From the NCBI GenBank assembly GCA_034112445.1, contig JAWUVI010000021.1, positions 12,815 through 76,814 of the forward strand: 64,000 bases of DNA. The letters are read 5' to 3'. The translations under genes and the position numbers were made by a program. Each line of letters opens with the position of its first letter. Positions within the stretch are counted from its first letter, which is position 1. This DNA comes from Cellvibrionaceae bacterium. GTDB lineage: Bacteria > Pseudomonadota > Gammaproteobacteria > Pseudomonadales > Cellvibrionaceae. The notes beneath the pieces are model-generated. The model was not told the DNA's origin, searched no databases, and was given only the letters and a program-made list of their open reading frames with translations. Positions 14,688-35,200 of the stretch are shown piece by piece.

Positions 14688-15761
14688 ATGACACAGACAG
14701 CAGTAGAAAATCTCAACATTGTTTCCCAAGAAATTTTAATTTCTCCTGAAGCTCTAAAACAAGAACTGCCTATGAGTGATCAAGCTCGTAAAACAGTTAC
14801 CGAAGGGCGTCAGATTATTCGCGATATTCTTGATGGCAAAGATCATCGCTTGATGGTCGTTATTGGCCCCTGCTCTATTCACGATACCGATGCCGCTATA
14901 GATTATGCTAAACGCCTTAAAGCATTATCGGATGAAGTATCCGATAGCTTATTCATTGTTATGCGTGTTTATTTTGAAAAGCCCAGAACCACAGTTGGCT
15001 GGAAAGGCTTGATTAATGATCCTCATCTTAATGACTCTTTTAAGATTCAAGAAGGTCTACATATTGGCCGCCAATTATTATTAGACATTTCTGAACTAGG
15101 ATTACCGACTTCTACAGAAGCACTTGATCCGATCTCGCCCCAATACCTGCAAGATCTTATTGGCTGGTCAGCGATTGGCGCACGTACCACTGAATCACAA
15201 ACTCACCGTGAATTAGCCAGCGGCTTATCTTCTGCAGTGGGCTTTAAGAACGGAACTGATGGTGGTTTGACTGTTGCGATTAATGCCCTTGAGTCAGTTT
15301 CAAGCCCGCATCGATTTTTGGGTATTGACGGCCAAGGTCAAGTAGCCATCACCCACACCAAAGGAAATGCATACGGCCATGTGGTATTACGTGGCGGAAA
15401 CGACAAACCTAATTACGATTCAGTTAGCATTGCTGTTTGCGAACAAGAATTAGCAAAAGCCGGTGTATCGACCAACATAATGGTTGACTGCAGCCACGCC
15501 AATTCAAATAAAAATCACGAACTGCAACCGTTGGTTATGGAAAATATTGCCAATCAAATTATTGAAGGTAATAAATCCATCATCGGCATTATGGTTGAAA
15601 GTAACATTGGTGCTGGCAATCAAAAACTATCTTCTAACCGTGATGAAATGGAATACGGAATTTCGGTAACCGATAAGTGTATTGACTGGGAAACTACAGA
15701 GGCCACATTGAAAAAGATGGCTAAAAATTTAAAGCAGCCTTTGTTAGATCGTCTTAAATAA
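14688..15761 (+). CDS. aroF: Class I 3-deoxy-7-phosphoheptulonate (DAHP) synthase, closest by eye to the Tyr-sensitive AroF isozyme
   Basis: 357 aa, colinear with E. coli AroF/AroG (VIGPCSIHD, VMRVYFEKPRTTVGWKGLINDP, IGARTTESQTHRELASGLS, GFKNGTDG, MVDCSHANSNK). Several segments match AroF better than AroG (EVSDSLFIVMRVYF, TEALDPISPQYL, PHRFLGIDGQGQVA). The isozyme assignment is tentative. Confidence 0.9.
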   Translation: MTQTAVENLNIVSQEILISPEALKQELPMSDQARKTVTEGRQIIRDILDGKDHRLMVVIGPCSIHDTDAAIDYAKRLKALSDEVSDSLFIVMRVYFEKPRTTVGWKGLINDPHLNDSFKIQEGLHIGRQLLLDISELGLPTSTEALDPISPQYLQDLIGWSAIGARTTESQTHRELASGLSSAVGFKNGTDGGLTVAINALESVSSPHRFLGIDGQGQVAITHTKGNAYGHVVLRGGNDKPNYDSVSIAVCEQELAKAGVSTNIMVDCSHANSNKNHELQPLVMENIANQIIEGNKSIIGIMVESNIGAGNQKLSSNRDEMEYGISVTDKCIDWETTEATLKKMAKNLKQPLLDRLK

Positions 15762-15941: not shown

Positions 15942-16754
15942 TTACAAACTGGCTAGACACTTAATTCCCGCTGGTAATTCTCCTTTAGGGTTCGCCAACT
16001 CTGCTCTGATTCGATAAGTCCCACTGGCTGCATCAATAATAGGGTCAACCATGGTGATTTTCGCTTGGTATTGACCATTAATCGGTGCCTCTGGATAAAT
16101 AGTCAAACTCCCCTTGGCAGAAATACTACCAAAGCTTTCATAAGGCATAACCAATTCAACTTTTAACGGATCTAAACGCGCAAGCGTTAATACTGGGTCA
16201 GTGCCGACAAACTCTCCAGACTCGTTAAACAAATCAATGACCACCCCATTGATTGGGCTTTTAATTTTTCTTAAATCCAAAACCTCACGGGAGTGGCGCA
16301 ACTCTTTTTGTGACACCTGATATTCAGTAGCAAATTCATCCCGCTCATGTATTGATATGAGGTCTTCATTATAAAGACTGTCATTTCGTTCAACTTGGCG
16401 CTGGGCAAATTCAGACCGAACTTTTGCTAGCTCAACCGACGCTGCTTCGACACCAGACTTGAGTGAAAATATAGGCTGCCCCTTACGAACTTTATCACCC
16501 AATTTAACTGAAACTGAATCTATTACGCCAGGTACTGGACTACTAATATCCACACGCATACTTGGCTCAATCATGCAGCCCATGGCCGGCAAATACTGTA
16601 TCACCACTGGTTGAGTAAGCTTGTTTTCTAGCGTGCTGGTTTCTATAGCACTTATCTCTAATGTATTTACCCCTGAAGTACTTGGCTCTTGAGCCAAGCT
16701 GGAAACACACACACACGATAAAATAAAGCTCGCTAGGCATTGCTTCAATGCCAT
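15942..16754 (-). CDS. Exported HlyD/membrane-fusion-protein-like periplasmic adaptor (short form)
   Basis: 270 aa. Signal peptide MALKQCLASFILSCVCVSSLAQE. Lipoyl/barrel-sandwich halves (GVIDSVSVKLGDKVRKGQPIFSL and IKSPINGVVIDL) separated by a short helical hairpin. AGGAGG Shine-Dalgarno 6 nt upstream. The start overlaps the SecA-like stop by 10 nt. Confidence 0.75.
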   Translation of the reverse strand: MALKQCLASFILSCVCVSSLAQEPSTSGVNTLEISAIETSTLENKLTQPVVIQYLPAMGCMIEPSMRVDISSPVPGVIDSVSVKLGDKVRKGQPIFSLKSGVEAASVELAKVRSEFAQRQVERNDSLYNEDLISIHERDEFATEYQVSQKELRHSREVLDLRKIKSPINGVVIDLFNESGEFVGTDPVLTLARLDPLKVELVMPYESFGSISAKGSLTIYPEAPINGQYQAKITMVDPIIDAASGTYRIRAELANPKGELPAGIKCLASL

Positions 16755-18832
16755 TTACTACCTCCTAAAAATGCTAAGGATGAACGTTCTTTCTCATCCA
16801 TCTTTAATGTCATTTTACGTTCACCAGCATGTTTCAACTCAAGCCGCCACTGACAATAACGTTGCAACCAACGAGCTAAGAAATTAAACGCAAATGGGAT
16901 TTTCCCGCTGACTAGAATGACTAATTTAGATAAATTTTTACCGTACATTCGAACCACAGAATCATCTAATGCCAAGATATATTCTACGCTGCCAGGATCA
17001 CCTTGTCTGGCTGATCTTCCAGCCAATTGCCTATCAACTCTCGCTGAATCATTCAGTTCGCAAATAATAACGTGTAAACCACCTGCCTCTCTGCATTCTT
17101 TATCGAGTTTTATATCGGTACCACGTCCTGCCATTGATGTGGCAATAGTAATGGCACCACTCACGCCAGCATCAGAAATAATTTCAGCCTCGGCACCATC
17201 TTGTTTTGCTGTTAGCAAAAAGTACGGTTGCTGCATTTCATCCATAATAGCCGCTAGACTTTCAGATTGATGTACCGAAGCTGTACCTATGAGAACTGAA
17301 CGTCCATCTAAAGCTTGTTTAACCGCTGCATCAACAATCACTTTTTCTTTACTGGGCTGATCGCGCAGCACTGTGTAAGCCGTGATTTTACGCAGTGATT
17401 TTTTTAACAGTGGCACTTTTTTTACAGGTAAATTATAAACCTTTAATAACTCAGACCGAACCTCTTTGGCCGTACCTGTCATACCAGCCACATTAAAATA
17501 TTTCTTAAAGAAATTTTGATAACTGATTTTGGCCAGTGTTTTACGTGGTTTGGTTAAAGGACAGCCCTCTTTAATTTCTATCAGTTGATGTAAGCCCCCT
17601 TCCCACGATCTATCTCCAGCCGGACGACCGGTGTACTCATCGACAATAACAATTTTGTCATCATCGACTATGTAGTGTTTATCTAAATCAAACAAATACA
17701 AAGCGGTTAAAGCTTGAGTCAACATTTGTTGGCGTCGAATGAGGTTGTACCACGGAGTATTTAAATCCAAACATATTTCTTCTGCAGCCTTACCACCTTC
17801 TTTAAGCATAACAATTTTACGGTTCGGCCAATCTATTTCATAGTGTTTACCATCGACCAAGTTACGAGCAACATCCAACACGGTTCGTAAAAAATCTTCT
17901 TCATCGTCCATATCGACTTCGCCACCAGAAATCACTAATGGGGTGCGTGACTCATCTATAAATACACTGTCAGCCTCATCGACTAAGGCAAAATTCAAAC
18001 CTTGATGCATAAGATTATTTAAAAAACCGGTATCGTCTTCGAGTACTTGGCGATGAATATCCAATGAATCTTGGCGTTCATCTAAAACTAACGAGTCTTT
18101 TAAGTAATCAAATACCAATTCATTATTTGAACAATAAACAATGTCACCGGCATAGATCGCCTTGCGGTCTTCAATGGTGTGCTCATTAATGATCGCCTGA
18201 GCACGCAAACCTAAATAACTGTAGAGCGGCAGCATTTCTTCACAGTCGCGCTCAGCCAAATAATCGTTGGTGGTAATTACGTGAACTTTAACACCGGCCA
18301 TTGCAGCGGTAGCGGTAGCCAATGTTCCGGCTAATGTTTTCCCTTCTCCGGTAGCCATTTCAGCCACCATGCCTTGCAATAAAATGAGCGACGCCCGAAT
18401 TTGGGTGTGATGATGACGCATACCTACAGAGCGCCCTGCAGCCTCACGGATAAGCGCAAATGATTCAATCACAGTCTTATTGTTTAGCCCACAACTAAGT
18501 AATGTAAGTTTGACCCGAGCAACTTCAGCTAAAAAATCTTCTTCCGATAATGCCGTATAAATATCTGATTGTTTAATGATTTTTTTAACGAGATGGCCGT
18601 CATTGATGAACAACTTTAAAATTGGAAACAGAACGGTTCGATAGGTTCCTCGTAAAAAACTATCAAGCCATGTGAGTTTAGGAATCGTTTTCTCAGGTCG
18701 ATTCTTGATTGAACTCATTTGCCGCATCGGGTATCGGAACAGAAGGTTTCTCAATGAAATAGACGGTAAAGATGTTGACCTTACAGATGTTGACCTTAAA
18801 GACTTCAATTTAAAAAACAGTTTATTAAACAT
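16745..18832 (-). CDS. Truncated SecA-like motor ATPase (NBD1, preprotein cross-linking domain and NBD2 only)
   Basis: 695 aa. Colinear with E. coli SecA from about residue 60 to the start of the scaffold helix. Matching segments: GMRHHHTQI, EMATGEGKTLAG (Walker A), VHVITTNDYLAERD, YCSNNELVFDYLKD, ALVDEADSVFIDESRTPLVISG (Walker B), YIVDDDKIVIVDEYTGR, WEGGLHQLIEIKEG, ISYQNFFKKY, GMTGTA, ATSMAGRGTDIKL, GGLHVI and RVDRQLAGRSARQGDPGS. It ends about 75 aa after NBD2. It therefore lacks most of the helical scaffold, the wing domain, the two-helix finger and the C-terminal SecB/zinc-binding tail. It carries a basic N-terminal extension of about 55 aa. Confidence 0.85.
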   Translation of the reverse strand: MFNKLFFKLKSLRSTSVRSTSLPSISLRNLLFRYPMRQMSSIKNRPEKTIPKLTWLDSFLRGTYRTVLFPILKLFINDGHLVKKIIKQSDIYTALSEEDFLAEVARVKLTLLSCGLNNKTVIESFALIREAAGRSVGMRHHHTQIRASLILLQGMVAEMATGEGKTLAGTLATATAAMAGVKVHVITTNDYLAERDCEEMLPLYSYLGLRAQAIINEHTIEDRKAIYAGDIVYCSNNELVFDYLKDSLVLDERQDSLDIHRQVLEDDTGFLNNLMHQGLNFALVDEADSVFIDESRTPLVISGGEVDMDDEEDFLRTVLDVARNLVDGKHYEIDWPNRKIVMLKEGGKAAEEICLDLNTPWYNLIRRQQMLTQALTALYLFDLDKHYIVDDDKIVIVDEYTGRPAGDRSWEGGLHQLIEIKEGCPLTKPRKTLAKISYQNFFKKYFNVAGMTGTAKEVRSELLKVYNLPVKKVPLLKKSLRKITAYTVLRDQPSKEKVIVDAAVKQALDGRSVLIGTASVHQSESLAAIMDEMQQPYFLLTAKQDGAEAEIISDAGVSGAITIATSMAGRGTDIKLDKECREAGGLHVIICELNDSARVDRQLAGRSARQGDPGSVEYILALDDSVVRMYGKNLSKLVILVSGKIPFAFNFLARWLQRYCQWRLELKHAGERKMTLKMDEKERSSLAFLGGSKWH

Positions 18833-20969
18833 TAAACTGCTCCAAAAAGCTGCGTCTGACGCTGCGATAAACGCGCCAAAAAATAGGTTCTTCGATCAAG
18901 TTAAATTTAACAAAAAATCTCTCTTCAACACGCTCAAGTAAAGATTCATCCGTCACCACACGAACCAAAACAAAATTCTCAACCGCCGTAGGGGCATCTG
19001 ATTTACTCGGATCAATGACTAAATCACCGCCAGCTTCAGTCGATAAAATAACACTGGGCAACTCCTTGGTTACCTGTGGAGTAACATTGAGCATCTGCGC
19101 ATTAAATTCAACTTGGCGATCAGAAGCAGGCCGAACATCTATAGAGTTTGTATCTGCTAGAACTTGCTCTGCCAAGCCCTCAGGAATAAGAACTTTAAGG
19201 GTTAGCTTATCGTCAGCTGACAACACGTAACCAACCAATTCACCACGTTTAAGAAAGCCACCTTGAAAGGAATCGATTTTAGACAAAACTACCTTACCAG
19301 GAGATAAACTGGTTACTTTGGTTTGTTCAAGGTGGGTTTGAATTTCGTAGTGTTCGCGCTCTAATCGTTTTTTCTCTTCTTTGATCAATAAAAATTTAGC
19401 TCGATCGGCATAAGAGGCTTGAAGTCTTGCCTCTGTAGCTTGTAGTTGAGCGTTCAACACCGCTAACTTGTCTTCAAGCTCATAGTTCTTCAAGTTGATA
19501 AGAGTTTCACCTATAGCAACCTGCTCACCACTTTTTTTCACTATGCTATCAATAAAACCAGACTCACCCGCATACAAACGTTGTTTTTCATTCACCCACG
19601 AAACTCCTGAAACAGTAACACTATAGGGCAAGGGAATTTCAAACAACAATATCCAGAAGCTCGCCGTCACGATAACCATAACCATGATTGGATTTCGCTT
19701 GGATGTTTTAAATTCATTATCGGTAAAAGGTTTGCTCACCGTTTTTGAAAACGGCATTAACCAGCCAGAGGTAAAAGCCCATATAGCCAAAAGAATACCG
19801 AGGATAAAGTATTTCTGACCAACAAATATAATAATGGATATCGAAATAAATAAACGATAAGCAAAGGCGAACATATTGTAGAAGAAGAGCCAATAAGCTT
19901 CGCGTATATCCACCGCTGGACTCATGACAGATTTAATATTGAACATATAGCGTTTACATAAATACCCCCAATAAGACGTCGCCTTTTTGGCCAAATTGGG
20001 GATTTCTAAATAATCTGACAAAGCAAAATAGGCATCAAACTTTAGCAGCGGATTACCATTAAATAGCAGCGTTGAGATACCCGCCATAAAAACAATATTG
20101 AACAGTAAGGCTTTTAAAAATCCAGCCTCTGAAATATTCCAAATAATCAATGCTACCGCGGCAATGAACAGCTCAACGATCACGCCTGAAGCCGACACCA
20201 TAATCCGCTGATATTTACTGGCAAAACTGGCCGACTCTGACGCGTTCACATAAGGCATGGGGAAAAATACCAAAAACATAACGCCCACTTCCGAGACTTG
20301 ACCGCCATAGTAGCGTACACAAAACGCATGCCCCAGTTCGTGCAAAATCTTGATCAATGGATATAAAAACCACAACAGTAGTAAATTTTCTGCGGCTAAA
20401 ACACGATCCGATAAATTGGACGTCAACGCCTCATAATTTTGTGCCGCAATAACCAACGCGTAAGTAATGAATAATCCATAAACTAACCATAAGCGCCAAT
20501 TAATAAAACGCTCTAATACGGGACACAATTTATCCAGTAATTTAGTAGGATCAAATAGAGGGAGTTGAAGAGACATGGGAGACTGCACTTTTTGCAGCCG
20601 CTTTTTATCGCTTTTACTTTGTTTACGATGGAATAAATCCTTAGCATTAGCCGGAATATTCAGATGAATCATATCGGCTTGATGCAACGATGTTATTAAA
20701 GTCACCACCTCATCTTGAGTCGGCATATCTTTTTCAAGCTGATTGCCAGACTCTTCCCACATTTCATTAAGGGTGTGCTGACCATCCATCATGCCAATCA
20801 ATAAATAGGCGTGAGATGAAAAGAGTTGAACCGTACCAGAAATGGTATCGCGTAAAACGTACCAACGTTCATTGCGGTGAATCTGTGATGAGATATCGAT
20901 TTGGACTTTGAGTTTAGGTTTCAGGTTTTCAACCCGGTACCAATTTTTACTGAAGACAGATACTGACAT
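18825..20969 (-). CDS. Polytopic M50 (site-2-protease-like) zinc metalloprotease fused to a C-terminal HlyD-like adaptor domain
   Basis: HExxH in a TM helix (ILHELGHAFCVRYYGG) and a downstream N-x-x-P-x-x-x-x-D motif (FNGNPLLKFDAYF). There are several TM helices. The C-terminal part has barrel-sandwich and coiled-coil character (SGFIDSIVKKSGEQVAIGETLINL ... SLSPGKVVL). The N-terminal ~90 aa (NWYRVENLKP...WYVLRD...LIGMMDGQHTLNEMW) resembles a PqqD-like peptide-binding domain. The ORF track extends to a TTG at 21005. The ATG at 20969 (MSVSVFSKNWYRV) lies 4 nt after the upstream stop and looks the more likely start. Confidence 0.75.
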   Translation of the reverse strand: MSVSVFSKNWYRVENLKPKLKVQIDISSQIHRNERWYVLRDTISGTVQLFSSHAYLLIGMMDGQHTLNEMWEESGNQLEKDMPTQDEVVTLITSLHQADMIHLNIPANAKDLFHRKQSKSDKKRLQKVQSPMSLQLPLFDPTKLLDKLCPVLERFINWRLWLVYGLFITYALVIAAQNYEALTSNLSDRVLAAENLLLLWFLYPLIKILHELGHAFCVRYYGGQVSEVGVMFLVFFPMPYVNASESASFASKYQRIMVSASGVIVELFIAAVALIIWNISEAGFLKALLFNIVFMAGISTLLFNGNPLLKFDAYFALSDYLEIPNLAKKATSYWGYLCKRYMFNIKSVMSPAVDIREAYWLFFYNMFAFAYRLFISISIIIFVGQKYFILGILLAIWAFTSGWLMPFSKTVSKPFTDNEFKTSKRNPIMVMVIVTASFWILLFEIPLPYSVTVSGVSWVNEKQRLYAGESGFIDSIVKKSGEQVAIGETLINLKNYELEDKLAVLNAQLQATEARLQASYADRAKFLLIKEEKKRLEREHYEIQTHLEQTKVTSLSPGKVVLSKIDSFQGGFLKRGELVGYVLSADDKLTLKVLIPEGLAEQVLADTNSIDVRPASDRQVEFNAQMLNVTPQVTKELPSVILSTEAGGDLVIDPSKSDAPTAVENFVLVRVVTDESLLERVEERFFVKFNLIEEPIFWRVYRSVRRSFLEQFNV

Positions 20970-20973
20970 AAAC

Positions 20974-22839
20974 CTAGCCCCAGAAAGACCACAGTTTAAG
21001 AGCAAGCCACTTTCTTAAATCGTGAGTCCAAATATCTATCAGCAGGCGCCGGTCTACAAACACCTTACCTACCCCCACCATGCCCGGTCTAAAGGCAACC
21101 TCATTGGAGTCAAAACCGGCCTCTACACGGTAAAAGGTACTTTTGTCCTTCACTTCAGTTATGGGCGTGATTTTTTCAATGGTGAACTTGAACTCCTGAC
21201 TCGACAGAGATGAAAACAACACATGACCTTGCTGTTCAAGCTCAACGTCTAAGATTTTATATTCACTGACAAATAAGATAAGTCGATAATCATTTAGCGG
21301 CGAGATTTGATACAGCTCTTCACCTTGATTCACCGAACCACCAACTCTCTTACTTAAATCCCCGGCCACGACCAAAGAATCAAACGGAGCCTTAAGAATG
21401 GAGCGTTCCAGTTGACTCGTGGTAACCGCTAATTGTGCTCTCGACTGTGCCATTTTGGCGTACAGTATTTGCGCTTTTGAACGATCATAAGCCGCCATCG
21501 ACTCATTGTATTCTTTATTATCTTGCTCTATTTGGCTTAACCATTTGATTCTTTCGAGGCGTAAATCACGATCCTCCATGGCTAACAATTCGCTACCTTG
21601 TTGAACTTGATCACCGGCACTGACTTCAACCGATTTAATAAAGCCATTATAAGGAGCAGAAACGATTCTTATTTGTCTGGGTTCTAAAGTGACATCGGCA
21701 TTGACCGTATAACCCCCTTCAACCACAGAGAAAAAGACTAAAGCAAAGACAGAAACAATTAAGAATATTTTTCTTTTAAGGTAGCCCGGCGCTAACATCC
21801 GCTCTAGTTGTTTACGCGACTGTTTAGCTATATGAGTAAATAGGGAAACTTGAGCTTGTTTCTTTTCATTAAGAGCCAACCCAACCAAAGAGGTTGTAGC
21901 TTCTATAAAATTAATATCGTGCTCTATAAAAGGTTGTTCCGCTGTTCTTTCAAACAACGCCATCGCGTATATATCATCATCTTTAACCAGTGGAATAATG
22001 AGTATCTGAGAGTTGTGATGACTGAATGATAATTTTTCAGTGTTGTGACAGATAATGTTTTTATCATCGATTAAAGGCCACCGAATTATAGAGCGCTGAT
22101 CAAATGATTCCTGCATCGCTGCGCGCATTTTCTTAGCCGATACCGAACGTAAATCATTATCGGTACTGCCTGATATTACGGCCAGTTTTATCTGTTGGTG
22201 TTTAACAAAACCGAAACTAACGCGTTCACAAGAGAAAACCTTGGCTAAATTATCAGCCCACTGGAGTGCAGACTCGTGCCATTCATCAGCTTTAGTGACC
22301 GACAGATAGCCATCGAGTGTAATATTTTGACGTTTTACTAATGCGGCCTGTTGCTGCCCTGCAGACGATTGATAAAAAAGCTCAACCCACAAACACAGCC
22401 ACTCTAGGCGTGACATGAAGGTTTCTATTTCTTCGGCTTTCGTTAATATCACTCGACATGAAAAAACCGCTTTAATCTCAACGCCTAACTTAATTGGATA
22501 GGCAACGCCATAGACACCGTGTTCATCCTGTGGGATAACAATCGGGGACTGACTATGTGCGGCTTCATCAATAAGATCACCCAATAAATTGGTTAGCTCA
22601 GGATCTTGAATCGAAGCGGCAACAGGCTTAAGTCGACTGGAACTGTCGTCAGCGGTTAATAGTGCATCCGTTATACCACTGGTTTCTTGTAGGCAGTATT
22701 CCAGCCAAACCTCGTACCAATCCGCATCTTTTGCCGATTGATTTAATTGATCAAGGGTGATGTGAGACCTGCCAGAAAACGACTCAACGGAAATGACTGA
22801 ATCGTCGTTATTCTGAGTTAATGAAGTATCTATATTCAC
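20974..22839 (-). CDS. Cytoplasmic GAF-like sensor region, single TM helix and periplasmic HlyD-family adaptor
   Basis: 621 aa with a GTG start. The N-terminal ~340 aa has GAF-like patterns (VSFGFVKHQQIKLAVISGS ... LIIPLVKDDDIYAMALFER). TM helix IFLIVSVFALVFFSVVEGG. It then has HlyD features (APYNGFIKSVEVSAGDQVQQGSELLAM, a long coiled-coil, ILKAPFDSLV, GEELYQISP). Confidence 0.7.
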   Translation of the reverse strand: MNIDTSLTQNNDDSVISVESFSGRSHITLDQLNQSAKDADWYEVWLEYCLQETSGITDALLTADDSSSRLKPVAASIQDPELTNLLGDLIDEAAHSQSPIVIPQDEHGVYGVAYPIKLGVEIKAVFSCRVILTKAEEIETFMSRLEWLCLWVELFYQSSAGQQQAALVKRQNITLDGYLSVTKADEWHESALQWADNLAKVFSCERVSFGFVKHQQIKLAVISGSTDNDLRSVSAKKMRAAMQESFDQRSIIRWPLIDDKNIICHNTEKLSFSHHNSQILIIPLVKDDDIYAMALFERTAEQPFIEHDINFIEATTSLVGLALNEKKQAQVSLFTHIAKQSRKQLERMLAPGYLKRKIFLIVSVFALVFFSVVEGGYTVNADVTLEPRQIRIVSAPYNGFIKSVEVSAGDQVQQGSELLAMEDRDLRLERIKWLSQIEQDNKEYNESMAAYDRSKAQILYAKMAQSRAQLAVTTSQLERSILKAPFDSLVVAGDLSKRVGGSVNQGEELYQISPLNDYRLILFVSEYKILDVELEQQGHVLFSSLSSQEFKFTIEKITPITEVKDKSTFYRVEAGFDSNEVAFRPGMVGVGKVFVDRRLLIDIWTHDLRKWLALKLWSFWG

Positions 22840-22911: not shown

Positions 22912-23199
22912 TTATTCGGCGTTATCACCAATAGCACCAAAGCGGTTCTCATACTCATCGACTACTTTACCCAACAACAAACTCAAACGTTTGGCCGCAT
23001 ACGGGTTTAAAATAATACGATCAGAAAGGTTAATCGCCACTTCTTTCTGGCCCGTATGCCATGTCTGATTGGTTCCAAACAATAATGTGACTTCCTCACG
23101 AGTACTCGACACATTACACACATTCGCATACGAACTGCGCATTTGTGAATCATTCCACGTTAATTTTGGTGTGTTTTGCGCCTGCTTTTTATCGGTCAT
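22912..23199 (-). CDS. Small cytoplasmic protein, DUF3467-like
   Basis: 95 aa with an AAGGA Shine-Dalgarno upstream. Pattern SSYANVCNVSSTREEVTLLFG...RIILNPYAAKRLSLLLGKVVDEYENRFGAI matches my recollection of the DUF3467 family. No signal peptide. It lies immediately downstream of the giant gene (42-nt gap). Confidence 0.6.
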   Translation of the reverse strand: MTDKKQAQNTPKLTWNDSQMRSSYANVCNVSSTREEVTLLFGTNQTWHTGQKEVAINLSDRIILNPYAAKRLSLLLGKVVDEYENRFGAIGDNAE

Positions 23200-23241: not shown

Positions 23242-26200
23242 TTATTTACTCGTCTTACGACGAACTAGCTCACCATCACTCCAAGTAAACAGATTCTGCT
23301 CTTTGGCTTTTTGTGTCATTAATTCTTCTGAATTCTCAACACTGTAGCTCTGTTTGTTTTGGGTTTTCTGGCGAACTTGCCAGCCACGTCGCATGGCAGC
23401 CAAAGATATTACACCCAAGATAGCTTCAGCTCCACGACTAACACCTGAATTGTCATCGGAGTCAACGTTCGATACCTTCATCGTCGCATCATCCTCAGCT
23501 TTCTCTTGTGGAATTGGGTTGCCATCTTCATCAAGAAGCACACAGCCTTCCGGTATAATTGGATCGCCGTTTTCATCAAGTTCAACTTCAATGGGCTCGC
23601 CGTTTTCATCGACAACTTGAACGTCACATGAGACCTCAGACTCACCAGTATCTTCAGTTTCTTCACCAGCCGCCGTAGCCGGTAAGCTCTGTAAAAAGTC
23701 TTGCAGAGAATCATTAGCCGATGCGCCTTCACTTCCCGTACCCACTCGTACCAGCAATAAATTACTGCTGTGGATATTGGTGGTGAATTCGCCCGCTACT
23801 TGATAAACGTCTGACCAATCCAAGTCCAACTCAATGGCGAAGGCGCTGTAGTATTGCCCCTGAGTCGCACCGATTAATTCAAGCGATGCTGGATCCGTAG
23901 AAATCAGTACACCACCAACGGTTTGAGTAAAGCGACCATAACCACCCAAGGCGATATCTTCTATGAAGTTGGCCTCAAACAAATCACTCTCGTGTCCGCC
24001 AAGTAACCAATCAAATCCTTCACCACCATCAATGGTATCGGCGCCACCTTTTAACGGATCGATCGTATCAGCAAAGAACTGGCCGACTTGATCGTAACCG
24101 ATGATGCCGAAATCACCGAAGATGATGTCATTACCAGCGTCACCATAAAGTTCATCTTCGGCGCCGCCACCCATAATCCAGTCGTTGTCATCGCCACCAT
24201 GAACCACATCCTGACCGCCTTGGTCAGGCAAGGTGGTTACCATTTCAACAAAGACATCATTCTGGAAGGTCATTTCACCGCTGTCAGCCAAGACCATATC
24301 GTCCCCGGCACCTGCATCAACGGTATCGTCATCAAGGCCAGCAATAATACGATCCTTACCGGCACCTGAGTCGATTGAATCATCACCCGTAGTACTTGGG
24401 TCTGAATCAGTTGAGGCTAAGCGAGACGCTATGCCATTGGTGTATTCAATGATGCCGTTATCACCAAAGATGTCATCGTCACCACCGGTGGTAGTAATCG
24501 TGTCATCGCCCTGACCTGCCAGGATGGTGTTGTCTCCGCCAGTGCTGCGAATTATGTCCTTACCGCCATTGATGAGATCAGTGTTCTCGATGGTTTCAAT
24601 AACACCGGCTGAATCGTAATTAATCTCGCCGTTGTCACCAATGACGCGATCATTGCCTGTGCCCGTATCCACGGTATCACTACCTTGGCCTGCAATAACG
24701 GTGTTATCACCTTCGCCTGCATCAATAACGTCATCACCACCTAGGTCGGTTACCGTACTGGTGGCGCGAGTTAAAATTGCGTCAACATAGATAAGTTCAC
24801 CGCTGTCAGCTAACACAACATCGTTACCAGAGCTCGTGGTGATTTGGTCGTTATCTAGACCGGCAATAATACGATTATTACCAATACCCGCATTAATAAT
24901 GTCGTCGCCTGTAGTGGACTCATCAACATCAATGGAAACCAAGCGAGAAGCAACACCAGTGGTGTATTCAATTAAGCCGTTATCACCAAATATGTCATCA
25001 TCGCCATCGAGTGTAGTAACCGTGTCGTTACCTTGACCAGCAATAATAACGTTACCGCCATGGCCAGCGGTAATAACGTCATTGGCGCCATTAACAATAG
25101 ATGTACTGCTCAGACGATCAATAACTCCCGCTGTTGTCCAAATCATTTCGCCGCTATCGCCAATGATATGATTAGAACCCGCACCGGCTGTTACTGTATC
25201 TTCACCATTACCGGCGATGATCCAACCAGTAACGTCCGTTAATGTAATTTGATCATTACCGCCTTCAGTCTCAACTGTAGAGACCATGCGGGTAACAACA
25301 TCATTAACCACTTCTATTTGACCATTATCAGCTAAGACATGAGCCGTTCCAGCATCAACGGTAACAACATCATCACCGAGTCCAGCTAATACGCGATTAT
25401 TACCATCCGTTACCGTAATCGTATCTATTGATGCTGTAGCAGGCGTTATATCCGAAGTTTGTAGTAGAACAGCCAAGCCATTTGCATCGAAGTCAATAGA
25501 GCCATTGTCACCTATAAGATTATTGGTGCCGCTAGCATTAATCGTGTCCTCACCAAAGCCAGCAATAACACTGTTAACGCCAGTGCCGCCGACGGTAATA
25601 TCATCCGCGCCACCATTACCGGAGACATCGGATTCAATTCGCGAAATAACGCTACCGTTGTAAGTAATTGTACCTAGATCACCAATAACGACATTGCTGC
25701 CAAGGCTATCGATAACCGTGTCATTGCCTAATCCAGCAATGATTCGATCATCGCCTTCATTGCCCATTATGTAGTCATTACCCATAACACTGGTGCTATG
25801 CGATTGAATCGTAATAGCCATGGTGCTGGTGATTTCATCGGCAAACAATGGCGTCGCAGTACCATCGCTATTATCAGTAACTACGCCCTCATCGCCAAGG
25901 ATGATGTCAACACCTTCACCGCCGTATAAGTAGTCATCACTCGCACTACCAATAATCAAGTCATTACCAATTTGGCCATGGATACGTGTCGCCAAAGTTG
26001 AGCCACTGGCATTAACTGTATCGTCTCCATCTTGGCCAAAAATATCTAAGCGACGCGCTCCGGTATCGCCGCCAGTATTAAGAACGTCATGAGAGATGAC
26101 GTCAGTGACTGTGCTGGTAATACGATCGCTGCCTTCATTGCCATAAAGCGTGGTAACGCTAACATCCGAGCCTGTCACATCTTCAAAATAAACACCGGTG

Positions 26201-29200
26201 ACAGCAATAACATCAGCGCCTTGGCTAGCCCAAATAACCAGGTCGTTATTGTAATTTCCAGCGGTTGCGGTGTAAGTAATATCAGCTACGGCCATGCCAA
26301 CCATACGACCATTACTCAAAGTGGCGGTATCGGCTACTAGGCTGTCGAAATCACTGACGTACAGTGAGTTAGCATCAGCGCCGGCATCGATATTTAATAA
26401 GCCATTTATGCCATCTAAAGTACCGTGTGCCACGCCTATATTAGATAAATCACCATTAGCATCACTGGTGATATCTATTCGATCTTCACCGGCGTGCGTA
26501 TTGATATTAGTAACTGTGTTGCTGTTAGTTGATTGAACATTAATAACGTCAGCCGCAGAACCCGTATCAATATTGAGTGTGTCGACACCGTAATAGTTAA
26601 TACCGTTAGTGCGAGTTTCAAGCGAAGCATCACCAGCAGCAACGGTTAATGAAGCTGTTTCATGCTCACCTTGGAAGCTAATCAACCAACCCTCAGCGAT
26701 TTTAATCAAACCGAAGTTATTGGTATGCGGTAAAGCATCATTACTGTTATTTGGGTTCAGAATAAGAGTCAACGCATCTCTAAGAGCTTTTTCATCATCA
26801 ACTTCATTTCCAAGCCAATATTCAGCCCAATCGATATTGGTTGTGCCTAGCTCTTTGGGGCCCAGACCTTCAGGGTCAATTCCAATCACGGTTAATTGAT
26901 AATTACTGGTGCCATCAACTGTTAGAATCTGAGTGTTTCCTGCAACGCTAATAGGTGAACCATCACGTAGCGTGGTGATACGTGCATCGACAGAAATATC
27001 ATCCGCTGCGAACAGACCTGTTGTCGTAGGATCAATATCGACAGTCATTTGTGGAATATTAACACCCGACATTTCACCACCAAAGGTGATGCTGTATAGG
27101 TTGCCACTGGCTGATACTTCTCTTTCAACCGTAATGCCTTGCATATTGGTCATTTCTAGAAGAGTACCAAAGTGATTATTGAGTGCCATTGCCATGTCGT
27201 CAGAACTGATACCGTAGGCCATTGTGGCTATACCGTAATCAACCCCAAAGTTCATCCCGAAAGTTCCACCAGCGGCACGAATGGCTAACTGCTGTTTCTC
27301 CGCTAACGAAGGCATATCCAAACCAATCAAACTGGTGCGTCGAACTTGCAACTCATTGCTGACCTCATCACCAGAGTCATCAACATTAAGGATGTCTCCA
27401 ATATTATCGCCATCCGTTAGATCCGCTTCACCCATATCAATGGTCAGTAAGGCGGCAATTTCATCGGCCAACTGCTCATTACTGCGAACGGTAATAACAT
27501 CATCGCCCGCTTCAGTATTGATACTCGTCACACCTGAAACGGTTTTGACTAGAACATCGTCATCACCTTTACCGGTGGTGATGTTGGTTGCTCCCTCGTG
27601 AGTCGATTCAATGATGACCTGATCGATACCATGACCAAGGTCAAGACTCAGTATTTCAAGGCCTTCATAATGAATACCACCAGTAATATCAGTACCCGCA
27701 ATGGTCACATCATCGCCCATACCTAAGCCGTAAACGCGGCTTTCCGTTATGGTGACGCTTTCATCGGCCGGGCTATTACCGTTGTATATATTCAATACAT
27801 CCACTTGGACAGCTTCATCCACTCGGGTATTGAGGTTTACCGGACGAATAAAGTATGAGTCGGTAGGCAGTATGGTCATGTCCTCCGGTAGATCTAAGGT
27901 CAAGGTCGTTAAGTCTTCAGAAATACCCAATATATCGACAACGGTGAGTAGTTCGCCATTGCGCATGATGGATATTTCATAAGGATTATTCTCAATACGA
28001 GGATCAAAACCATCGGCAAATTCGTTGGATTCAGGATCCCAATGTTCAGCATTTGAATCACTAAATTCATTGCCTGAGACAAAGGTAATTAAACCGTCTT
28101 CTGGGAATAAATTAGTTTCCAGAGGAAGCATGACAGGATTATTGAGTTTGTAATCCGCTCCAATTTGTTCTCCGCCGTTTATAAATACTGGGCCACGTAT
28201 TTGATTAACTCGCTCTGAGCCAGGCGCAAATACTTTGACATCACCTCCATCAATGACCAAATCGTTAAAGGCTTGGACATCTATGGTGCGAATGTCACTC
28301 CAATCTCCGGCAGCTCCAGACGTAAATACTTCACTAGAAACAATTCCAGAATTTAAAATCACCTGAACCTCAGGGTCGAGTTCAGCGGCGTCGGTGAAGA
28401 CTAAATCACCGTTATAGGTTCTGGTTTCAACACCGGCAAAATCAACGGTCACGTCGGCATCTGGAGCACCCGAAAGAACCATGAAGTAATTGTCATCTTG
28501 CCAGTTTGGTGAGGTGTTATAGTCCAGATATTTATCCGCTACATCATAAGTGATTTCATAACGATCACCTTTGTTAATAACGATATCGGTACGATCTAGA
28601 GTAAACGTATCCGACTCTACGTCATAGAATGCAATGGTCGAAGATTCACCCGCATCTACACCCGACAACATAGTCAACGTCATACCTTTCAAATCAACAA
28701 AGTCTTCATCAAGACCATGCCCATCAAGAGAGATATTCAGTTGATAACTGTCAGTCATCCCCTGCTCCCATGTACTCGAATAAAGTACGTTATAGTCAGA
28801 GGTCGTGGTGGAGCTATAGGCCGCTAAATGGATGGCCTCAGGATCAAAGATGTCACCATTCAATTCATAATCGTATACATAGCTGGTTGTTATCACGTTA
28901 GCCGAACGGGAATAGTTAACTTCATAACCTACTTCAACACTGTAAAATCCAGCCGTATCAAACAATAACAACAGCATTGGATCATTGATGTCGGTACTAC
29001 CAACATCCAACTCGTCACTTAAATCCATTATTTCACTATTAGGAATGAGCACTCGGCTCTCGCCAGTTCCCTGATAGATTTTCAAATAAGGAACATAACT
29101 CGCTGTATAGGTAGTAGTGGTGTTTATCTGTTGAATGGTAAGTTCATCAAGATAATCAACAACTTGAGATCCCCAAAAGGTGTCTACCGTTTTAGTGTTA

Positions 29201-32200
29201 AATACAGGTGTCGATATAACTTCGTCATTCGTATAACTACTGGTGTCAGTAAACGATTTACCAAAATCAAGATCAAACAAGCCTTGCGCCGAGGCAATAC
29301 GTTGTTGACTGATAACGGCATCATCTATCTGATTGCCATCCCCAATGACAATAGTTGCACCATTAGCGGTTGCATTATTGGTTAAACCCGCGGCCTCTAA
29401 TTGCAACATCAACCAATCAGCAACAATATTATTAATTGGTTCTGCCACCGTAACAGCGGCTATGTCTGCTTGGGTCACTTCATGAGTAAACGCAACACCA
29501 TTCACCGTCACCATCCAAACATCCCCAATAGCCGGAGAGCTGTCAGCGTTCAGATCAAGAGTGAACTTATCCCAGCGATCGTGTGTATTATCCCATGTTG
29601 GAGCTGGTAAGATTTCTGCATTTTTAATGATTAAGTTGGCGTCTATTTGCCCTTCATCTGCAGCCACAATAACCAATTCATCTCCAGAAGCGGTTACATC
29701 ATAACCGCTACCAAAGTGAGTACTGATCGCCAAGGCCATAGCGTCTAGGTCAGTTGTTGCGGTGCCAATATAAGGTTGCACACCAGACCCGGCGATAGTA
29801 ACAGTCCATTGATCACCAGCTGAAATTAATCCGCTGACATCGATGCTTTGCTCATAAACCGTAACAGTACTTGTTGTAGGCGAGGCTGACGTAATGACAT
29901 CGGCATGCAACGTCAGATTGGGAGCCGCGCCATTTGTGCGTTTAATCAACAAAGTATTGCTATTGGAATCATAAGTAGCCGTATAAGAACCACCAAAATC
30001 ACCCGCTAAATTGTCACCGATGGTACCCAATGCCAGGGATCCATCTGATTCACTAGAGACAACCGTTGAACCTGACAAAACACTCCAATTAGCTGCTGTG
30101 ACGGTATTATCCAACACTAATTTTTGTTGATACTGGCTATTGGAGGAAGCAAACGTGCCATTACCTGAAGCGGACGAGGTTGCTGTCGAAATGCCGCTGC
30201 CACTTGCGGCGGCGATAGCCGTTAATCCAACGCTAAACGATGTTGAATCTATCGAAGTAACAACATAATCAGAACTGAGAGTATTACTTAGGTAAGAACG
30301 TAAATCAGCCGTAACATCCGCCAACGAAGGCCGATCTGCTACATCCGTGAAACTGGCCGTGTAGGTTTTAGTCACCCCATCAATATTGATGGTCCAAGAC
30401 TGGCCACTGCTAACTTGTCCGGCATCGCCTACGGTAAAGGTACGCTGAATTAATTCTGATGAAGCTCCTTGTATCTGCTCATCCTCAGTAACCGTAAGAG
30501 AAACGCTTTTAGAACCAGCATCGACAATTGAAAGCTCATTACCATTAGAAAATCCAGAGTACTCAATTCGGTAATCAGAACCTAGACCTGGTGCTGTGTC
30601 GGTTTTGACTTTAGCGATTAAGCCATTGGCTATTTCGGTGAACGTTGGGTTGCTATCGGTTGGGTAAGTAAAGGTATCACTGCCAATGGTTAGCGCCCAT
30701 ACCTGACCGGTACCATATGCAGATACAGAAGATAAAACAAAATCATTCTCTTGCAGTTCAGTCGACGACTGAGATGAAACTACAGTCGTCTCATGATCTA
30801 CGTCTAGTCGGAATCCAACTTCAGTATTGCTAATCTGTACACTCTTATTATCAGCACTACGAGTCACATTAAAGAAGGTGTTTACAGAGCCATAAAACTG
30901 AGTATTAAGACCAGTGCTAGCATGATTCAACTGGTTGAATAAATCTGTCGTTAGAGAAATATCTGTACTGCTAGGACCTGCAGTAACGGTGTACTCTTCA
31001 CCACTCACATTGACAGTCCAAACATCTCCATCAGTGACAGAAGCAGGAAAATCTATCGTAGAGCTAAGACGCCAGCCACCAGCTGCACCAGTATCACCAA
31101 CATCAGCAGGACTATTGTTGGGAGCTCCAGCTGGACCGGACAACATGTCGGTTGTTACTTCTATAACATAATTATCTTTGTAGTAAGAACCACCGCCTTC
31201 AATGGTGAGGTGATGCATTGAGTCATCAATAGAGCCATCAAGGGTACCAATATTATCATTGGGTTGATCGTACCAGCCGGTGTTCTTACCTGTGATGCTA
31301 TCCGTACTGACCTGTTGACCTGTGGTTAATTTAGATTCTGCTTCATTCTCCAACAGCGGTGCAGGTATAAATTTAAATTCGGCAACCTCTTGGTTTTCAA
31401 GACCGAGGTGTAACTTATAATCTACGCCTTCAGGAACACCGGTTCCGTAAGTCGCTGATTTGTTGGTTCTACCATCGACTTCAAGAACGTAGATGCCAGC
31501 CGTATTAATTGTTGCTGATAAGCGAGCATCATTGATGCTTGTGCTACCAGAGTCGGTTGTCGAACTACCAAAACCAGTAATACTCACTGGTACGTATTCA
31601 CCATCAATTAATTGCAAAAGGCGTAAACTACTCTGCCACCAAATACCATCTCCTGACTCATACCCCGAATCAATATCAGCGCTAAAACTTACAGGACCTT
31701 CTTTGACAACAAACTCGTAATAGTCACGGCTATCATCGCCGGTGCCATTAACGGTTATATGAGGTCTGTCTTCAGACAGTTCGATGTCATCGCTAACAGC
31801 CTCACTCCAACGTGCAAGACTGAGGTCTTGAGCCGTAGCCATGGAATCATTGCCCACTAACTCTTCTACTTCAGCAAGACCAACACTGCCTGTAAATAAA
31901 TTGCCAGCGGCATCAGTAATCGCTTCACCTTGAGCCAGTACACCTGTTGTAGCACGCTCTGCCACTTGGGTAGTGGAGTCACTTTGTAAGCGATAAGAGG
32001 TGATAATGTCATCGACAGTTGAGTCAATACCATCCATATCGGTAATGACTCTCTCAAGTAACAACAGAGTTGGTTCGTCACCATCGGCGATGGTGACGTC
32101 GACTACGCCCATATTAAAGCCGTCGTAGTTAGTGTCTTCACTGGTCACTGTATGAGTAATTCGCCCGTAGTGTGTTCCTTCAACCACATCATCCGCATTC

Positions 32201-35200
32201 GCTTTAAAGGTAACGGTTTGCACATCGCGCCAGTTGTCTTTAGTGAACTTGAGGGTCACCGAATTGGCAAAAGTTACACCATCATCATCACTGAGCGACA
32301 ACTGGCCATCAGTATCAGCCGTTCCGTCAGCCGCTATGGTAACGAATACATCTTCTGCAGGCTCTTGACTCAACACAACTCGATAGCTGTCTTTATTCAA
32401 CTCAGTAATATCTTCAGCAACTAATGGCGAACCATTGTTTTGACTGATAACAACAGACGCTGAATCTTCATCGATTACTTGTACCACCATACGGCTTAAA
32501 GAAAGCCTATCGTAGTCATCACCATCCTGATCGGTAAGACCTTCCATCACACTGTGACGAATTTCTACTGATTGATTGCCTTCGGCGTAATTATCTTCAA
32601 GCGCTGTCACAGTAATGGTTTGAGCAATAAACCAGTTACTTCTGTCAAATAATAACGTCGTGGCTGTTTCATTACCGTTAAGAGCAACGCCTTTAGCGCC
32701 AGCTTCTTGTTCATCTTCAGTTGGAACAACGGCTGTTGCAGAGATACGTACAACATCTTCTGGCGGTCTAGTTAAGACCACTTCGTAAGTTGTAACACTA
32801 TTTGGATCAACCAATGCAGTGCCGTCTTCATCTTCATAAGCGCGGAGTGACCCCGCGATTGGACGAATCAAGACACCGGCTTCATCGGCATCCATTACAT
32901 TAGCTGAAATCATTGCCTTGATGGCATCTAAACGCTCATCGGTGCTGGTTACAATATTTTCAATCAGGCCGCTATGACCAAGCAAATCATCGGCAACCAC
33001 CGATACAGCATCGCCATCATTACCACCAGCCATTTCAAAGGTGTCACTGCCTAAACCGCCAACTAAATTGAGCTGTACGTTTTCATTCGTGCTGTAAACA
33101 AAGAAAGTATCGTTACCTTCCATGCCATCGATGACCAGTTTTTCGATACCTTCAAAGTTGGTGAAGCGCCCTGCTCCATAAACGCCTGTATCAGTAATAA
33201 CAAAATCATCACCAAATTCAGTACCTAAAATAGTGACTGTATCTAAGCCATCACCACCAGAAATATTAACCGGAGCATTTAAAGCGTAACTGATAAAGTC
33301 AGCGCCCTGACCACCATTAATATTAGTAAACGGTGCTTGAGGATCATCAGGATTAACCAACACGAAACTACGAATTAAGAAGGTATCGTTATCTTCATCA
33401 CCATAGAGTGAAATTTCTTTAGTGTTTCGATAAATAGTGAAACTGTCTTCACCTGTGCCACCGCGCAATGTCGCGGGGAAGCTAATGCCGTTACTGATAA
33501 AACCTTTTGTAACCAACGTTGTATCAAAGATATCTTTTGGTTCAATAGGAGACAAACCAGACAATGCATCACGTGGCGAGTTGAATACCTGACCCACTTG
33601 GAAGTTATCGTTACCAGCATCGCCAAATACGGTTAATGCCGCGCTGGTATCATCGAAAGTAAAGTTGTCATCGCCGTCACGACCATAAACGTTAATGCCA
33701 CCATTGAGATCGCTACCATAGTTGACTCGCTCGATGTCACTTCCAGCAACACGATTACCATTGCTGTCTAATTCCATTTGCATCGCATTAATAGAGTTTG
33801 GACGGAACAGGAAGTCATCGACATCATCGGTGCCAAATACGTTCAAGGTATTTATGGCATCTAAATCACCAGCTGATTGATCATCAATATTAATAATTGA
33901 TGACCCAGAACCCGCCAGGGCAATATTGTAAAAATCTGAGCCCTCTTGACCATATAGGTTCAACACACCACCAATACCATTGAGGAATGTTTGTTGATTA
34001 AACTTGTCAAAGTTCACATTAATAGTGTCATCGTCACCATCACCAGCAAAAACAGAGGCCTGAAGACCTGTTCCTGAGAGATTAAGAGTGTCACCACCAG
34101 AGCCTAACTTAATCGTTGTATTTTCGGCTTTCTGTACAGAAACATGAACTTGATCGGCACCTGATCCTGTATCCAAAACCACTCGATTAAAGGTGTTATT
34201 AGCGATGATATTGACTTCATCGGCACCAAAACCTGAATCGACCGTTAAGTTATCCATAACGGTATCGCTGATGATATTAATTACATCTGCACCGCCACCA
34301 GTGTTAAGCGTAATGTCTAGCCAATCAACACCCTCGGTAATATTAACGGTATCGTCAATGTCATGAATTTGAGTCACCACATCATCAAGCGGATCATCAT
34401 TACCTTGATCGTCTATGTCGTCAGCATTAACATTGAACGTGGCATTCTCAAAACCGCGTAACCACAAGCCACTCCAATCGCTATTTTCAAGCTCAATGGT
34501 ATCGTAGCTAACGTCATAGGCCGTATAGTCAAGGCCATCTGTATCAAGTTTGCGACCTTCTACATAATCATTAGTAACTTTTACATCTACTGTGGTGGTT
34601 TTATTAACCGTGATGGTTTCTGGCAAGTAGAAACCAGCGGTATCTTGGAAGGTCGTAATATCAACACTGTACTCATCGCTCGTGCTATCACCGTTTTTAT
34701 CTAAAATGAGGCCGTCACTCAAGGTTGCCTTAACCGCAACGGAGTTTTGTAATTGCGTCACCCGAATCAATTTGTCGACATTAACTTGAGTGAATTGTGT
34801 TCCGATTCCTGAAGTATCAACACCACTCGGTGCCGCACTGATTAGTGCCGCACGATAAGCCGACCAGTTATCAGCCGTTAGATAGAGCTCTTCAGTTTCA
34901 CCGTATTTAACCCCAAAAGCATCTTTTAGATCCGCGGTATATTCCAGCAAATCTTCAAGCGCCACAGGCGCATTAAAGCGATTAATAGCAACGCCTTCTA
35001 GAGCTGGATCGCCATTGGCTGCCACACCATAGTACGAATAGGTGTAATAACTTGTATTCAATGCCGCCAAGGCATCGGCATAAGCCATTTCCATCGCGAT
35101 GGTATTGCCCTTTGGCGCTTCAATAGAGCTAGACACTGAGGTAGTAGGATCAGCAGTCATTTCGCCTACGGTATAAATAATACTGAGCAGACGCAGTGTG

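Follow-up and report, generated by a model that had tools for sequence, protein, structure and literature searches.

The question raised by this locus is how a bacterium might export a protein of 11,951 residues from a gene cluster that encodes an outer-membrane factor of the TolC family and no ABC transporter. We analyzed a window, by which we mean the whole stretch of 64,000 nucleotides, from a Cellvibrionaceae bacterium (assembly GCA_034112445.1, contig JAWUVI010000021.1, positions 12,815 to 76,814 of the forward strand), and focused on one gene at 18825..20969 on the minus strand. Its 714-residue product is a fusion of three parts, namely a domain resembling PqqD and the recognition elements (RREs) of the pathways for peptides that are ribosomally synthesized and then post-translationally modified (RiPPs), a membrane protease of family M50 (site-2 protease, S2P), and a periplasmic adaptor. 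By a modest degree, we favor the view that this polytopic protein serves as the inner-membrane subunit of an ABC-free, TolC-dependent exporter for the giant protein, and that the cleavage of a leader is coupled to export.

The three domains of the fusion protein

The longest open reading frame of the gene spans 18825..21005 on the minus strand and starts with a TTG at 21005, but this start was rejected as a spurious extension, as none of 119 aligned homologues reaches upstream of the methionine that corresponds to the ATG at 20969. This methionine is the start in all 119, with an N-terminus of the type MSxSLFSxxWYR, and the ATG in the window lies 4 nt past the stop codon of the upstream gene. 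The real product thus comprises 714 residues, in line with the original prediction made from the DNA letters, which had pointed to the ATG as an alternative to the TTG.

The central part of the protein (19722..20498, minus strand; residues 158-416) is an M50/S2P-like membrane domain with the transmembrane (TM) helices TM1 to TM6, as delineated by hydropathy, by helices in AlphaFold2 (AF2) models, and by the matches to Pfam M50, NCBIfam daptide_HExxH, and the structure 3b4r that are described below. The zinc-binding and catalytic motif HELGH (20328..20342, minus strand; residues 210-214) is found near the cytoplasmic end of TM2, inside a hydrophobic helix that covers residues 193-220. The second motif, NGNPLLKFD (20034..20060, minus strand; residues 304-312), is of the type NxxPxxxxD, contains the putative third zinc ligand D312, and sits after the fourth TM helix; the residue behind the aspartate is Ala or Gly in the family. 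HExxH and NxxPxxxxD are present in all 262 full-length family members, which show 31-63% identity, and the apparent exceptions are four entries that are all N-terminally truncated. The further acidic residues D319 and E322 are likewise invariant (262/262). That HELGH is a chance HExxH is ruled out by this family-wide invariance. The invariant catalytic residues argue for real protease activity and support an M50 site that is catalytically intact and intramembrane, as had originally been proposed from HELGH in a hydrophobic segment and the NPLLKFD downstream of it.

Seven TM helices and a positive-inside count of 17 lysines and arginines inside versus 5 outside predict that the N-terminal domain is cytoplasmic and the adaptor periplasmic, which is the topology that had been expected. 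HExxH and D312 are placed near the cytoplasmic face of the membrane in this topology model, and RseP-type S2Ps likewise have their active site near that face. TM7 (19638..19691, minus strand; residues 427-444) anchors the periplasmic adaptor, which directly follows it, in the membrane, and it aligns with the TM helix of HlyD (8dck).

The assignment to the M50 family was followed with profile and fold searches. Pfam Peptidase_M50 (PF02163) was detected in all 30 homologues scanned at E<0.05, with a best E-value of 8.8e-8, and the Escherichia coli relative scored 34.7 bits. When a separate AF2 model of residues 1-425, with a predicted local distance difference test (pLDDT) value of 68, was searched with Foldseek, the top match in the PDB was MjS2P from M. 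jannaschii (3b4r; probability 0.99, 219 columns, E=0.058, TM-score 0.45), which is only moderate evidence for an S2P fold of the modeled domain.

The N-terminal domain (20670..20927, minus strand; approximately residues 15-100) is predicted to be a cytoplasmic winged helix of the RRE/PqqD-like type. In the AF2 model, it has the order beta-beta-beta-alpha-alpha-alpha between residues 24 and 97 at a pLDDT of about 80-88, with strands at 24-31, 34-41, and 47-51 and helices at 52-59, 67-81, and 85-97. The same Foldseek search placed TbiB1 (5v1v/5v1u) at ranks 2-4, with a probability of 1.0, a target-normalized TM-score of 0.74, and an rmsd of 3.1 Å. TbiB1 is the lasso-peptide RRE protein whose structure was solved together with its leader peptide. 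Pfam PqqD (PF05402) was detected in 10 of the 30 homologues (best E-value 5.8e-6), the PQQ_PqqD model (TIGR03859) matched the Methylosinus orthologue at 1e-5, below its cut-off, and several orthologues carry the names "PqqD family protein" or "PqqD family peptide modification chaperone" from the NCBI annotation pipeline PGAP.

The two domains together also have a known counterpart. The NCBIfam model daptide_HExxH (NF041824) matched residues 56-396 of the protein at 1e-40, and the Methylosinus orthologue matched 375 of its 379 positions (1-375) at 1.9e-44. According to the paper describing the daptides, the protease MpaP is an RRE fused N-terminally to a site-2 protease and is proposed to remove the leader after the conserved motif ELExMEAP. 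Judged by sequence, the RRE and M50 parts form one unit that shares homology with the RiPP leader peptidases of this MpaP type, with matches across both domains at 1e-40 to 1e-50. The target is a homologue and not a member of the daptide equivalog, as it reaches 140 bits where the cut-off is 300, and it is not accompanied by daptide tailoring genes. MpaP also differs in having no adaptor domain, and its substrates are peptides of about 25 residues in Gram-positive bacteria.

The C-terminal part (18828..19631, minus strand) is a periplasmic adaptor of the membrane fusion protein or HlyD type, with lipoyl halves, an alpha-hairpin (residues 496-548), a beta-barrel, and a basic C-terminal helix (residues 696-712). 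In the full-length AF2 model (pLDDT 84, pTM 0.70), beta-rich lipoyl and barrel domains flank the hairpin, which is formed by helices 496-518 and 523-548. Foldseek aligned the adaptor with MacA, MexA, AcrA, and EmrA at E-values from 3e-11 to 1e-8 over 260-300 columns, and the family profile matched MacA (8e-8) and HlyD 8dck (9e-6) among the PDB sequences, where it found adaptors only and no S2P or PqqD. The fold of MacA, MexA, AcrA, and EmrA is shared at residues 447-695; unlike these stand-alone proteins with a single TM helix or a lipid anchor, the target is anchored through a protease of seven TM helices that also carries a cytoplasmic RRE. Where the target has its C-terminal helix (18828-18878, minus strand), stand-alone adaptors contain a membrane-proximal domain. 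This helix is conserved, basic, and amphipathic, with the consensus RWYRxxRRxFLxxFxV and nearly invariant R699, R702, and R705.

The original prediction had described exactly such a three-part polypeptide, with a PqqD/RRE-like domain in front, an M50 protease in the middle, and a C-terminal adaptor with lipoyl halves and a coiled coil. The profile and fold searches uphold this architecture: the adaptor by its Foldseek matches and its alpha-hairpin, and the N-terminal domain by the modeled winged helix, the likeness to TbiB1, and the PF05402 matches, which are found in homologues and not in the target.

Giant neighbors and their leader-like motif

The presumed cargo is encoded at 23242..59097 on the minus strand. 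This 11,951-residue protein is acidic and nearly free of cysteine, contains RTX repeats and an N-terminal DUF4347 domain (58081..58650, minus strand; residues 150-339; Pfam 7.5e-49), and has no hydrophobic signal peptide. Instead, a basic stretch is followed by a motif of the LEPR-XLL type, LAEQMEARNLLSAD (58936..58977, minus strand; residues 41-54), which we propose as the region of RRE recognition and cleavage.

Homologue searches with the N-terminus of the giant returned short fragments only, as the database contains such genes in pieces, and complete giant genes were read from annotated plasmids. All eight complete giants that neighbor a fusion gene (from the window, Methylosinus, an E. 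coli IncF plasmid, Pseudosulfitobacter, Thalassospira, Pontibrevibacter, Mesorhizobium, and Ensifer; 4,033-12,918 residues) have a basic N-terminal stretch with 6-11 lysines and arginines and then a LEPR-XLL signature 18-70 residues from the start, with the consensus h-E-x-[LM]-E-P-R-x-L-L-S-A-D. PGAP names three of the eight "LEPR-XLL domain-containing protein", and the Methylosinus giant passes the corresponding model NF012209. With its form h-E-x-[LM]-E-[PA]-R, the motif of the giants resembles the L-E-x-M-E-A-P of the daptide leader, and AEQMEAR of the window giant can be set beside LExMEAP.

The association of giant and fusion genes was seen from both sides. Upstream sequence of at least 6 kb was available for 53 related loci, and in 42 of them an upstream open reading frame runs off the locus after more than 2,100-2,850 codons. 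In the reverse test, five proteins were picked solely by a LEPR/DUF4347 N-terminus, and four of them have genes for the fusion, the GAF-domain adaptor, the SecA-like ATPase, or TolC within 10 kb, whereas the flank of the fifth is filled by the giant gene itself.

These numbers bear on a reading in which the fusion matures and exports a small unannotated peptide, like a RiPP or bacteriocin protein, and the proximity of giant genes is coincidental. It draws on the curated HMMs, of which those for RiPP proteases match best, namely daptide_HExxH and, at 9e-12 and 45 bits, the YydH/LiaK model of NCBIfam. Both scores remain a long way short of the equivalog cut-offs, with 140 bits where 300 are required and 45 bits where 225 are, none of the loci contains RiPP tailoring genes, and a coincidence would have to account for 42 of 53 loci and four of five reverse tests, so that we consider this reading very improbable. 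To take the locus itself for a RiPP cluster was ruled out, as the precursor and tailoring genes are missing.

A different substrate site within the giant also had to be weighed, since its C-terminal tail (23245..23439, minus strand) consists of an Ala/Gly-rich hydrophobic stretch ending in GW, a basic cluster, and a W[DE] motif, in the window AEAILGVISLAAMRRGW...FTWSDGEL. This bipartite tail is common to the giants of the closest clade (the window and the loci L001, L003, L005, and L007-L029), with the pattern [small/hydrophobic]nGW-[KR]n, a spacer of about 25-35 residues, and [RK]x[FYW]xxW[DE]. The protease might therefore cut the C-terminus, the hydrophobic stretch and basic tail acting as a stop-transfer or sorting signal that the RRE would keep in the cytoplasm. 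The cut would then set the exported protein free or govern its retention. Site-2 proteases typically cleave helix-destabilized hydrophobic segments, and signals of type I secretion systems (T1SSs) are C-terminal, both of which would suit such a site. On the other hand, the hydrophobic stretch of 11-14 residues is short of a canonical TM helix, and the closest characterized relatives of the protease remove N-terminal leaders. Alphaproteobacterial giants end differently (...W..R.GLL.RL..LF), so the tail varies between clades, whereas the N-terminal domain of the protease and the LEPR-XLL motif are highly conserved across them, which mildly favors an N-terminal leader. In our view, C-terminal cleavage is a rather doubtful alternative, although the clade-specific tails could be the real signal or substrate.

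The gene module and its variants

The genes that surround the fusion all point in the same direction, on the minus strand, in the order TolC, giant, DUF3467, GAF-adaptor, fusion, SecA-like ATPase, and short adaptor. The TolC-family outer-membrane factor at 59179..60507 (Pfam OEP 2.7e-49) is the first gene of the cluster, and TolC is adjacent in several relatives as well. Its presence in the same cluster agrees with the link to TolC docking that the original prediction had drawn from the adaptor domain. The DUF3467 protein (22912..23199; 95 residues; Pfam 1.4e-22) is a small member of the conserved module whose position is kept in relatives. The next gene (20974..22839) codes for a GAF-domain protein with one TM helix (residues 357-375) and a periplasmic adaptor domain. 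Downstream of the fusion, a truncated SecA-like ATPase with the DEAD motor, PPXD, and NBD2 (16745..18832) overlaps the end of the fusion gene by 8 nt, and its own end is overlapped by 10 nt by the gene of a 270-residue periplasmic adaptor with a signal peptide or lipobox-like N-terminus (15942..16754). The 4-nt gap and the two overlaps among the last four genes suggest translational coupling. In the SecA-like ATPase, the motifs MATGEGKT (Walker A), VDEADS, and GRSARQGDPG are intact; it has no Pfam match to the scaffold/wing domain and no TM helix.

With regard to orthologous fusions and their neighbors, a search that the original prediction had suggested, the result is a large family with a conserved module. 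At 50% identity, the family comprises 10,774 cluster representatives at E<=1e-3, of which 3,496 remain at E<=1e-30, and relatives are encoded in at least 593 species-level genomes. Among the best 150 representatives, nearly all have about 715 residues and align end to end, and about ten are shorter and N-terminally truncated. The order of GAF-adaptor, fusion, SecA-like ATPase, and short adaptor is kept in nearly all of 86 related loci, and the module occurs in Gamma-, Alpha-, and Betaproteobacteria, Desulfobacterota, and Nitrospira. No ABC_tran domain was found in the open reading frames of at least 100 residues in the 64-kb window, nor any ABC transporter inside the conserved cluster of those related loci that were inspected. 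A canonical T1SS is ruled out by this lack of an ABC transporter.

The SecA-like gene is not a neighbor of the fusion in several variants, namely the E. coli IncF cassette, Thalassospira, and the loci L096 and L099. The motor is thus not universal, and the fusion is the invariant core. On E. coli IncF plasmids, a minimal cassette flanked by insertion sequences (NZ_CP081687.1, 44829-64580; NZ_CP030920.1, 109718-129511) consists of genes for an Ig-like/DUF4347 protein of 4,459-4,473 residues with the N-terminal motif ALESRQLFDG, a long TolC, two adaptors, and a 710-residue M50-adaptor fusion, and is without a SecA-like, GAF, DUF3467, or ABC gene. It was present in 24 of 5,426 complete E. coli genomes and was mostly plasmid-borne. 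Locus L096 (10001-19573) has an E. coli-type cassette, with TolC, adaptors, and a 710-residue M50 fusion after a shorter LEPR/DUF4347 gene, whose product has an ESPR-like start (Pfam PF13018) without the hydrophobic core of a signal peptide.

Such SecA-less variants keep alive the idea, possibly alongside proteolysis, that the 7-TM M50-like domain mainly serves as an inner-membrane pore or scaffold that replaces the membrane domain of an ABC transporter, with proteolysis irrelevant or vestigial and the N-terminal domain only docking the cargo or the SecA-like ATPase. The fusion is the sole polytopic membrane protein of the module, and it is the only one identified in the minimal cassettes of E. 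coli, Thalassospira, and L096, which have no gene for an ABC transporter or a SecA-like protein; a pore role was also proposed by Kamneva et al. (2015). Yet HExxH, NxxPxxxxD, D319, and E322 are invariant in all 262 members down to about 31% identity, which would be unexpected for a vestigial site, and S2P folds are not known to be protein-conducting channels. We consider a mainly pore-forming or scaffolding domain to be unlikely, while noting that pore and protease roles are not mutually exclusive.

Several further observations concern the other members of the module. In about half of the related loci, phmmer detects DUF3467 at the position that separates the giant from the GAF-adaptor, and the protein has no match among the PDB sequences; that it could be a chaperone, perhaps SecB-like, is only a guess. 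PGAP calls the SecA-like ATPase a "prepilin peptidase" in Methylosinus (L087, 3173-5089) and Pseudosulfitobacter (L090, 2014-4038) and a "DEAD/DEAH box helicase" elsewhere. As the Methylosinus copy matches Pfam SecA_DEAD at 1e-103, the former name looks like a misannotation. In the same Pseudosulfitobacter locus (Roseobacteraceae), a SapC-family gene (4031-4852) separates the fusion from the SecA-like gene, and gaps of about 0.8-1.3 kb exist at this junction in the alphaproteobacterial loci L041, L046, L051, L054, L058, L064, and L086. Just upstream of TolC and on the same strand, the window contains an open reading frame of 169 residues (60544-61053, minus strand) with an N-terminal hydrophobic segment and no Pfam or NCBIfam match.

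The flanks of the cluster consist of ordinary genes. A DAHP synthase gene (14688-15761) borders it, and a pair of AddAB/RecBCD-like housekeeping genes for a PD-(D/E)XK nuclease and a UvrD-like helicase follows at 8262-14566 on the plus strand. Beyond these are genes for a HAMP-GGDEF-EAL protein (6000-8084, minus strand) and a PAS histidine kinase (313-1773, plus strand), for which a regulatory link to the cluster is conceivable, and control by cyclic di-GMP is common for large adhesins.

The fusion could, in this context, be a regulatory or quality-control protease that clears jammed cargo, cuts the DUF3467 protein or the GAF-adaptor, or performs regulated intramembrane proteolysis, and has no part in the maturation of cargo. 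Many M50 proteases, such as RseP and SpoIVFB, act in signaling, the partner adaptor carries a GAF sensor domain, and the GGDEF-EAL gene is nearby. Against this role, there is no sigma/anti-sigma pair in the cluster of the window or in those annotated clusters that were inspected, the fused RRE domain suggests that a specific peptide is recognized, and the protease is homologous to leader peptidases rather than to the RseP type and has no PDZ or CBS domains. We judge a regulatory function to be quite unlikely, and the gene content makes both a purely regulatory and a RiPP-only role unlikely.

A proposed export route and its relatives

The mechanism that we favor would start with a cargo that is made without a Sec signal peptide and whose basic N-terminal leader would end in the LEPR-XLL-type motif, in the window LAEQMEAR/NLLSAD. 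The cytoplasmic RRE/PqqD-like domain may bind this leader, as RRE domains do with RiPP leaders, and the M50 site near the cytoplasmic membrane face would cut it off, probably at or just past the motif. The fused adaptor, the GAF-adaptor, and the short adaptor, whose folds and genes are found in the operon, could assemble into a periplasmic conduit that docks the operon's TolC. Where the SecA-like ATPase is present, without the SecA parts that engage SecYEG, it may drive the unfolded chain from the N- to the C-terminus. Leader removal would be physically coupled to export, similar to what is seen with C39 domains, with the difference that an RRE-S2P leader peptidase is fused to the adaptor. The original prediction had suggested such a coupling of cleavage to export, and this idea is still the best current hypothesis. 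It has gained comparative support because the RRE and M50 parts are homologous to the daptide leader peptidase and the giants carry a conserved leader-like motif.

Several points weigh against this mechanism. The target scores 26.0 bits with Pfam M50, just under the gathering score of 27.2, and has no Pfam PqqD match of its own. For the S2P and RRE folds, Foldseek gave weak E-values of 0.06-0.4, obtained with the model of pLDDT 68. The window giant reaches 13.1 bits with NF012209, whose cut-off is 17, and the likeness between LEPR-XLL and the daptide leader is a similarity of short patterns without a statistical test. The SecA-like motor is not universal, and the clade-specific tails of the giants remain competing candidates for the signal or substrate. 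Finally, cleavage, its site, and the export of the giant are argued from gene order and homology.

The operon has been flagged before. Kamneva, Poudel, and Ward described computationally a module of GAF-HlyD, Peptidase_M50+HlyD, a secondary SecA_DEAD, and an HlyD/biotin-lipoyl protein, sometimes with OEP, and proposed a T1SS-like machine with SecA_DEAD as the ATPase and the M50 protein possibly as the pore (Kamneva et al., 2015; PMC4452313). The locus in the window is a member of this module, as it has the same four co-located genes, a SecA_DEAD protein without scaffold/wing, and no ABC transporter. The target gene thus belongs to a large family and is not categorically new. In contrast to the present analysis, the 2015 study named no cargo, did not mention PqqD/RRE, DUF3467, giant neighbors, or LEPR-XLL, and considered a pore rather than a leader peptidase. 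What goes beyond it is the homology of the RRE and M50 parts to RiPP leader peptidases, the giant upstream gene in 42 of 53 loci, and the LEPR-XLL signature in eight of eight giants. Our literature search found no experimental or functional work on the module, although absence from such a search is not proof, and a T1SS review in Chemical Reviews and a preprint on Chlorochromatium giant proteins contain nothing on an M50-adaptor fusion.

Two other systems can be compared. Bacteriocin and RTX ABC exporters with an N-terminal C39 peptidase or C39-like domain (such as CvaB, PCAT1, and HlyB, with HlyD and TolC) share a cytoplasm-facing module for leader recognition or cleavage in an inner-membrane component, an HlyD-type adaptor, TolC, and RTX-rich cargo. 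They differ in that the C39 protease is a cysteine enzyme on an ABC transporter, whereas the target has a zinc M50 domain on an adaptor, no ABC transporter in the window, a SecA-like ATPase when one is present, and three adaptor proteins. The giants of Omnitrophota and actinobacteria described by West-Roberts et al. (2023, preprint) contain embedded SecA_DEAD and PPXD domains without scaffold/wing that are suspected to have a role in export. They share the association of a truncated SecA motor with a giant protein, but the SecA-like domains are inside the giant polypeptide, and the terms M50, HlyD, and TolC are absent from that preprint.

Taken further, the comparison leads to a tentative proposal in which we place somewhat less than even confidence: the loci may represent a distinct, as yet unnamed secretion class of diderm bacteria for giant LEPR-XLL proteins, in which the ABC-C39 transporter is replaced by a leader peptidase of the RiPP type that is joined to a TolC adaptor, LEPR-XLL is the cleaved leader, and the truncated SecA, where present, is a SecYEG-independent motor.

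Marine and soil Proteobacteria and Desulfobacterota commonly have giant proteins of 4,000-13,000 residues that resemble adhesins or RTX proteins, and the export of such giants has largely been assumed to follow the classical T1SS. The locus type found in at least 593 species genomes would correspond to a TolC-dependent, ABC-free route with a protease-adaptor fusion at its center. Should leader cleavage be confirmed, it would explain the LEPR-XLL N-terminal signature by which NCBI names thousands of giants, extend the RRE/leader-peptide logic of RiPPs to protein secretion, give the SecA-type motor a second, SecYEG-independent job, and make the compact five-gene cassette of E. coli plasmids a tractable model. 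The links to a RiPP-type leader peptidase, to LEPR-XLL cargo, and to SecA-less cassettes, including that of E. coli, make this long-ignored secretion route directly testable.

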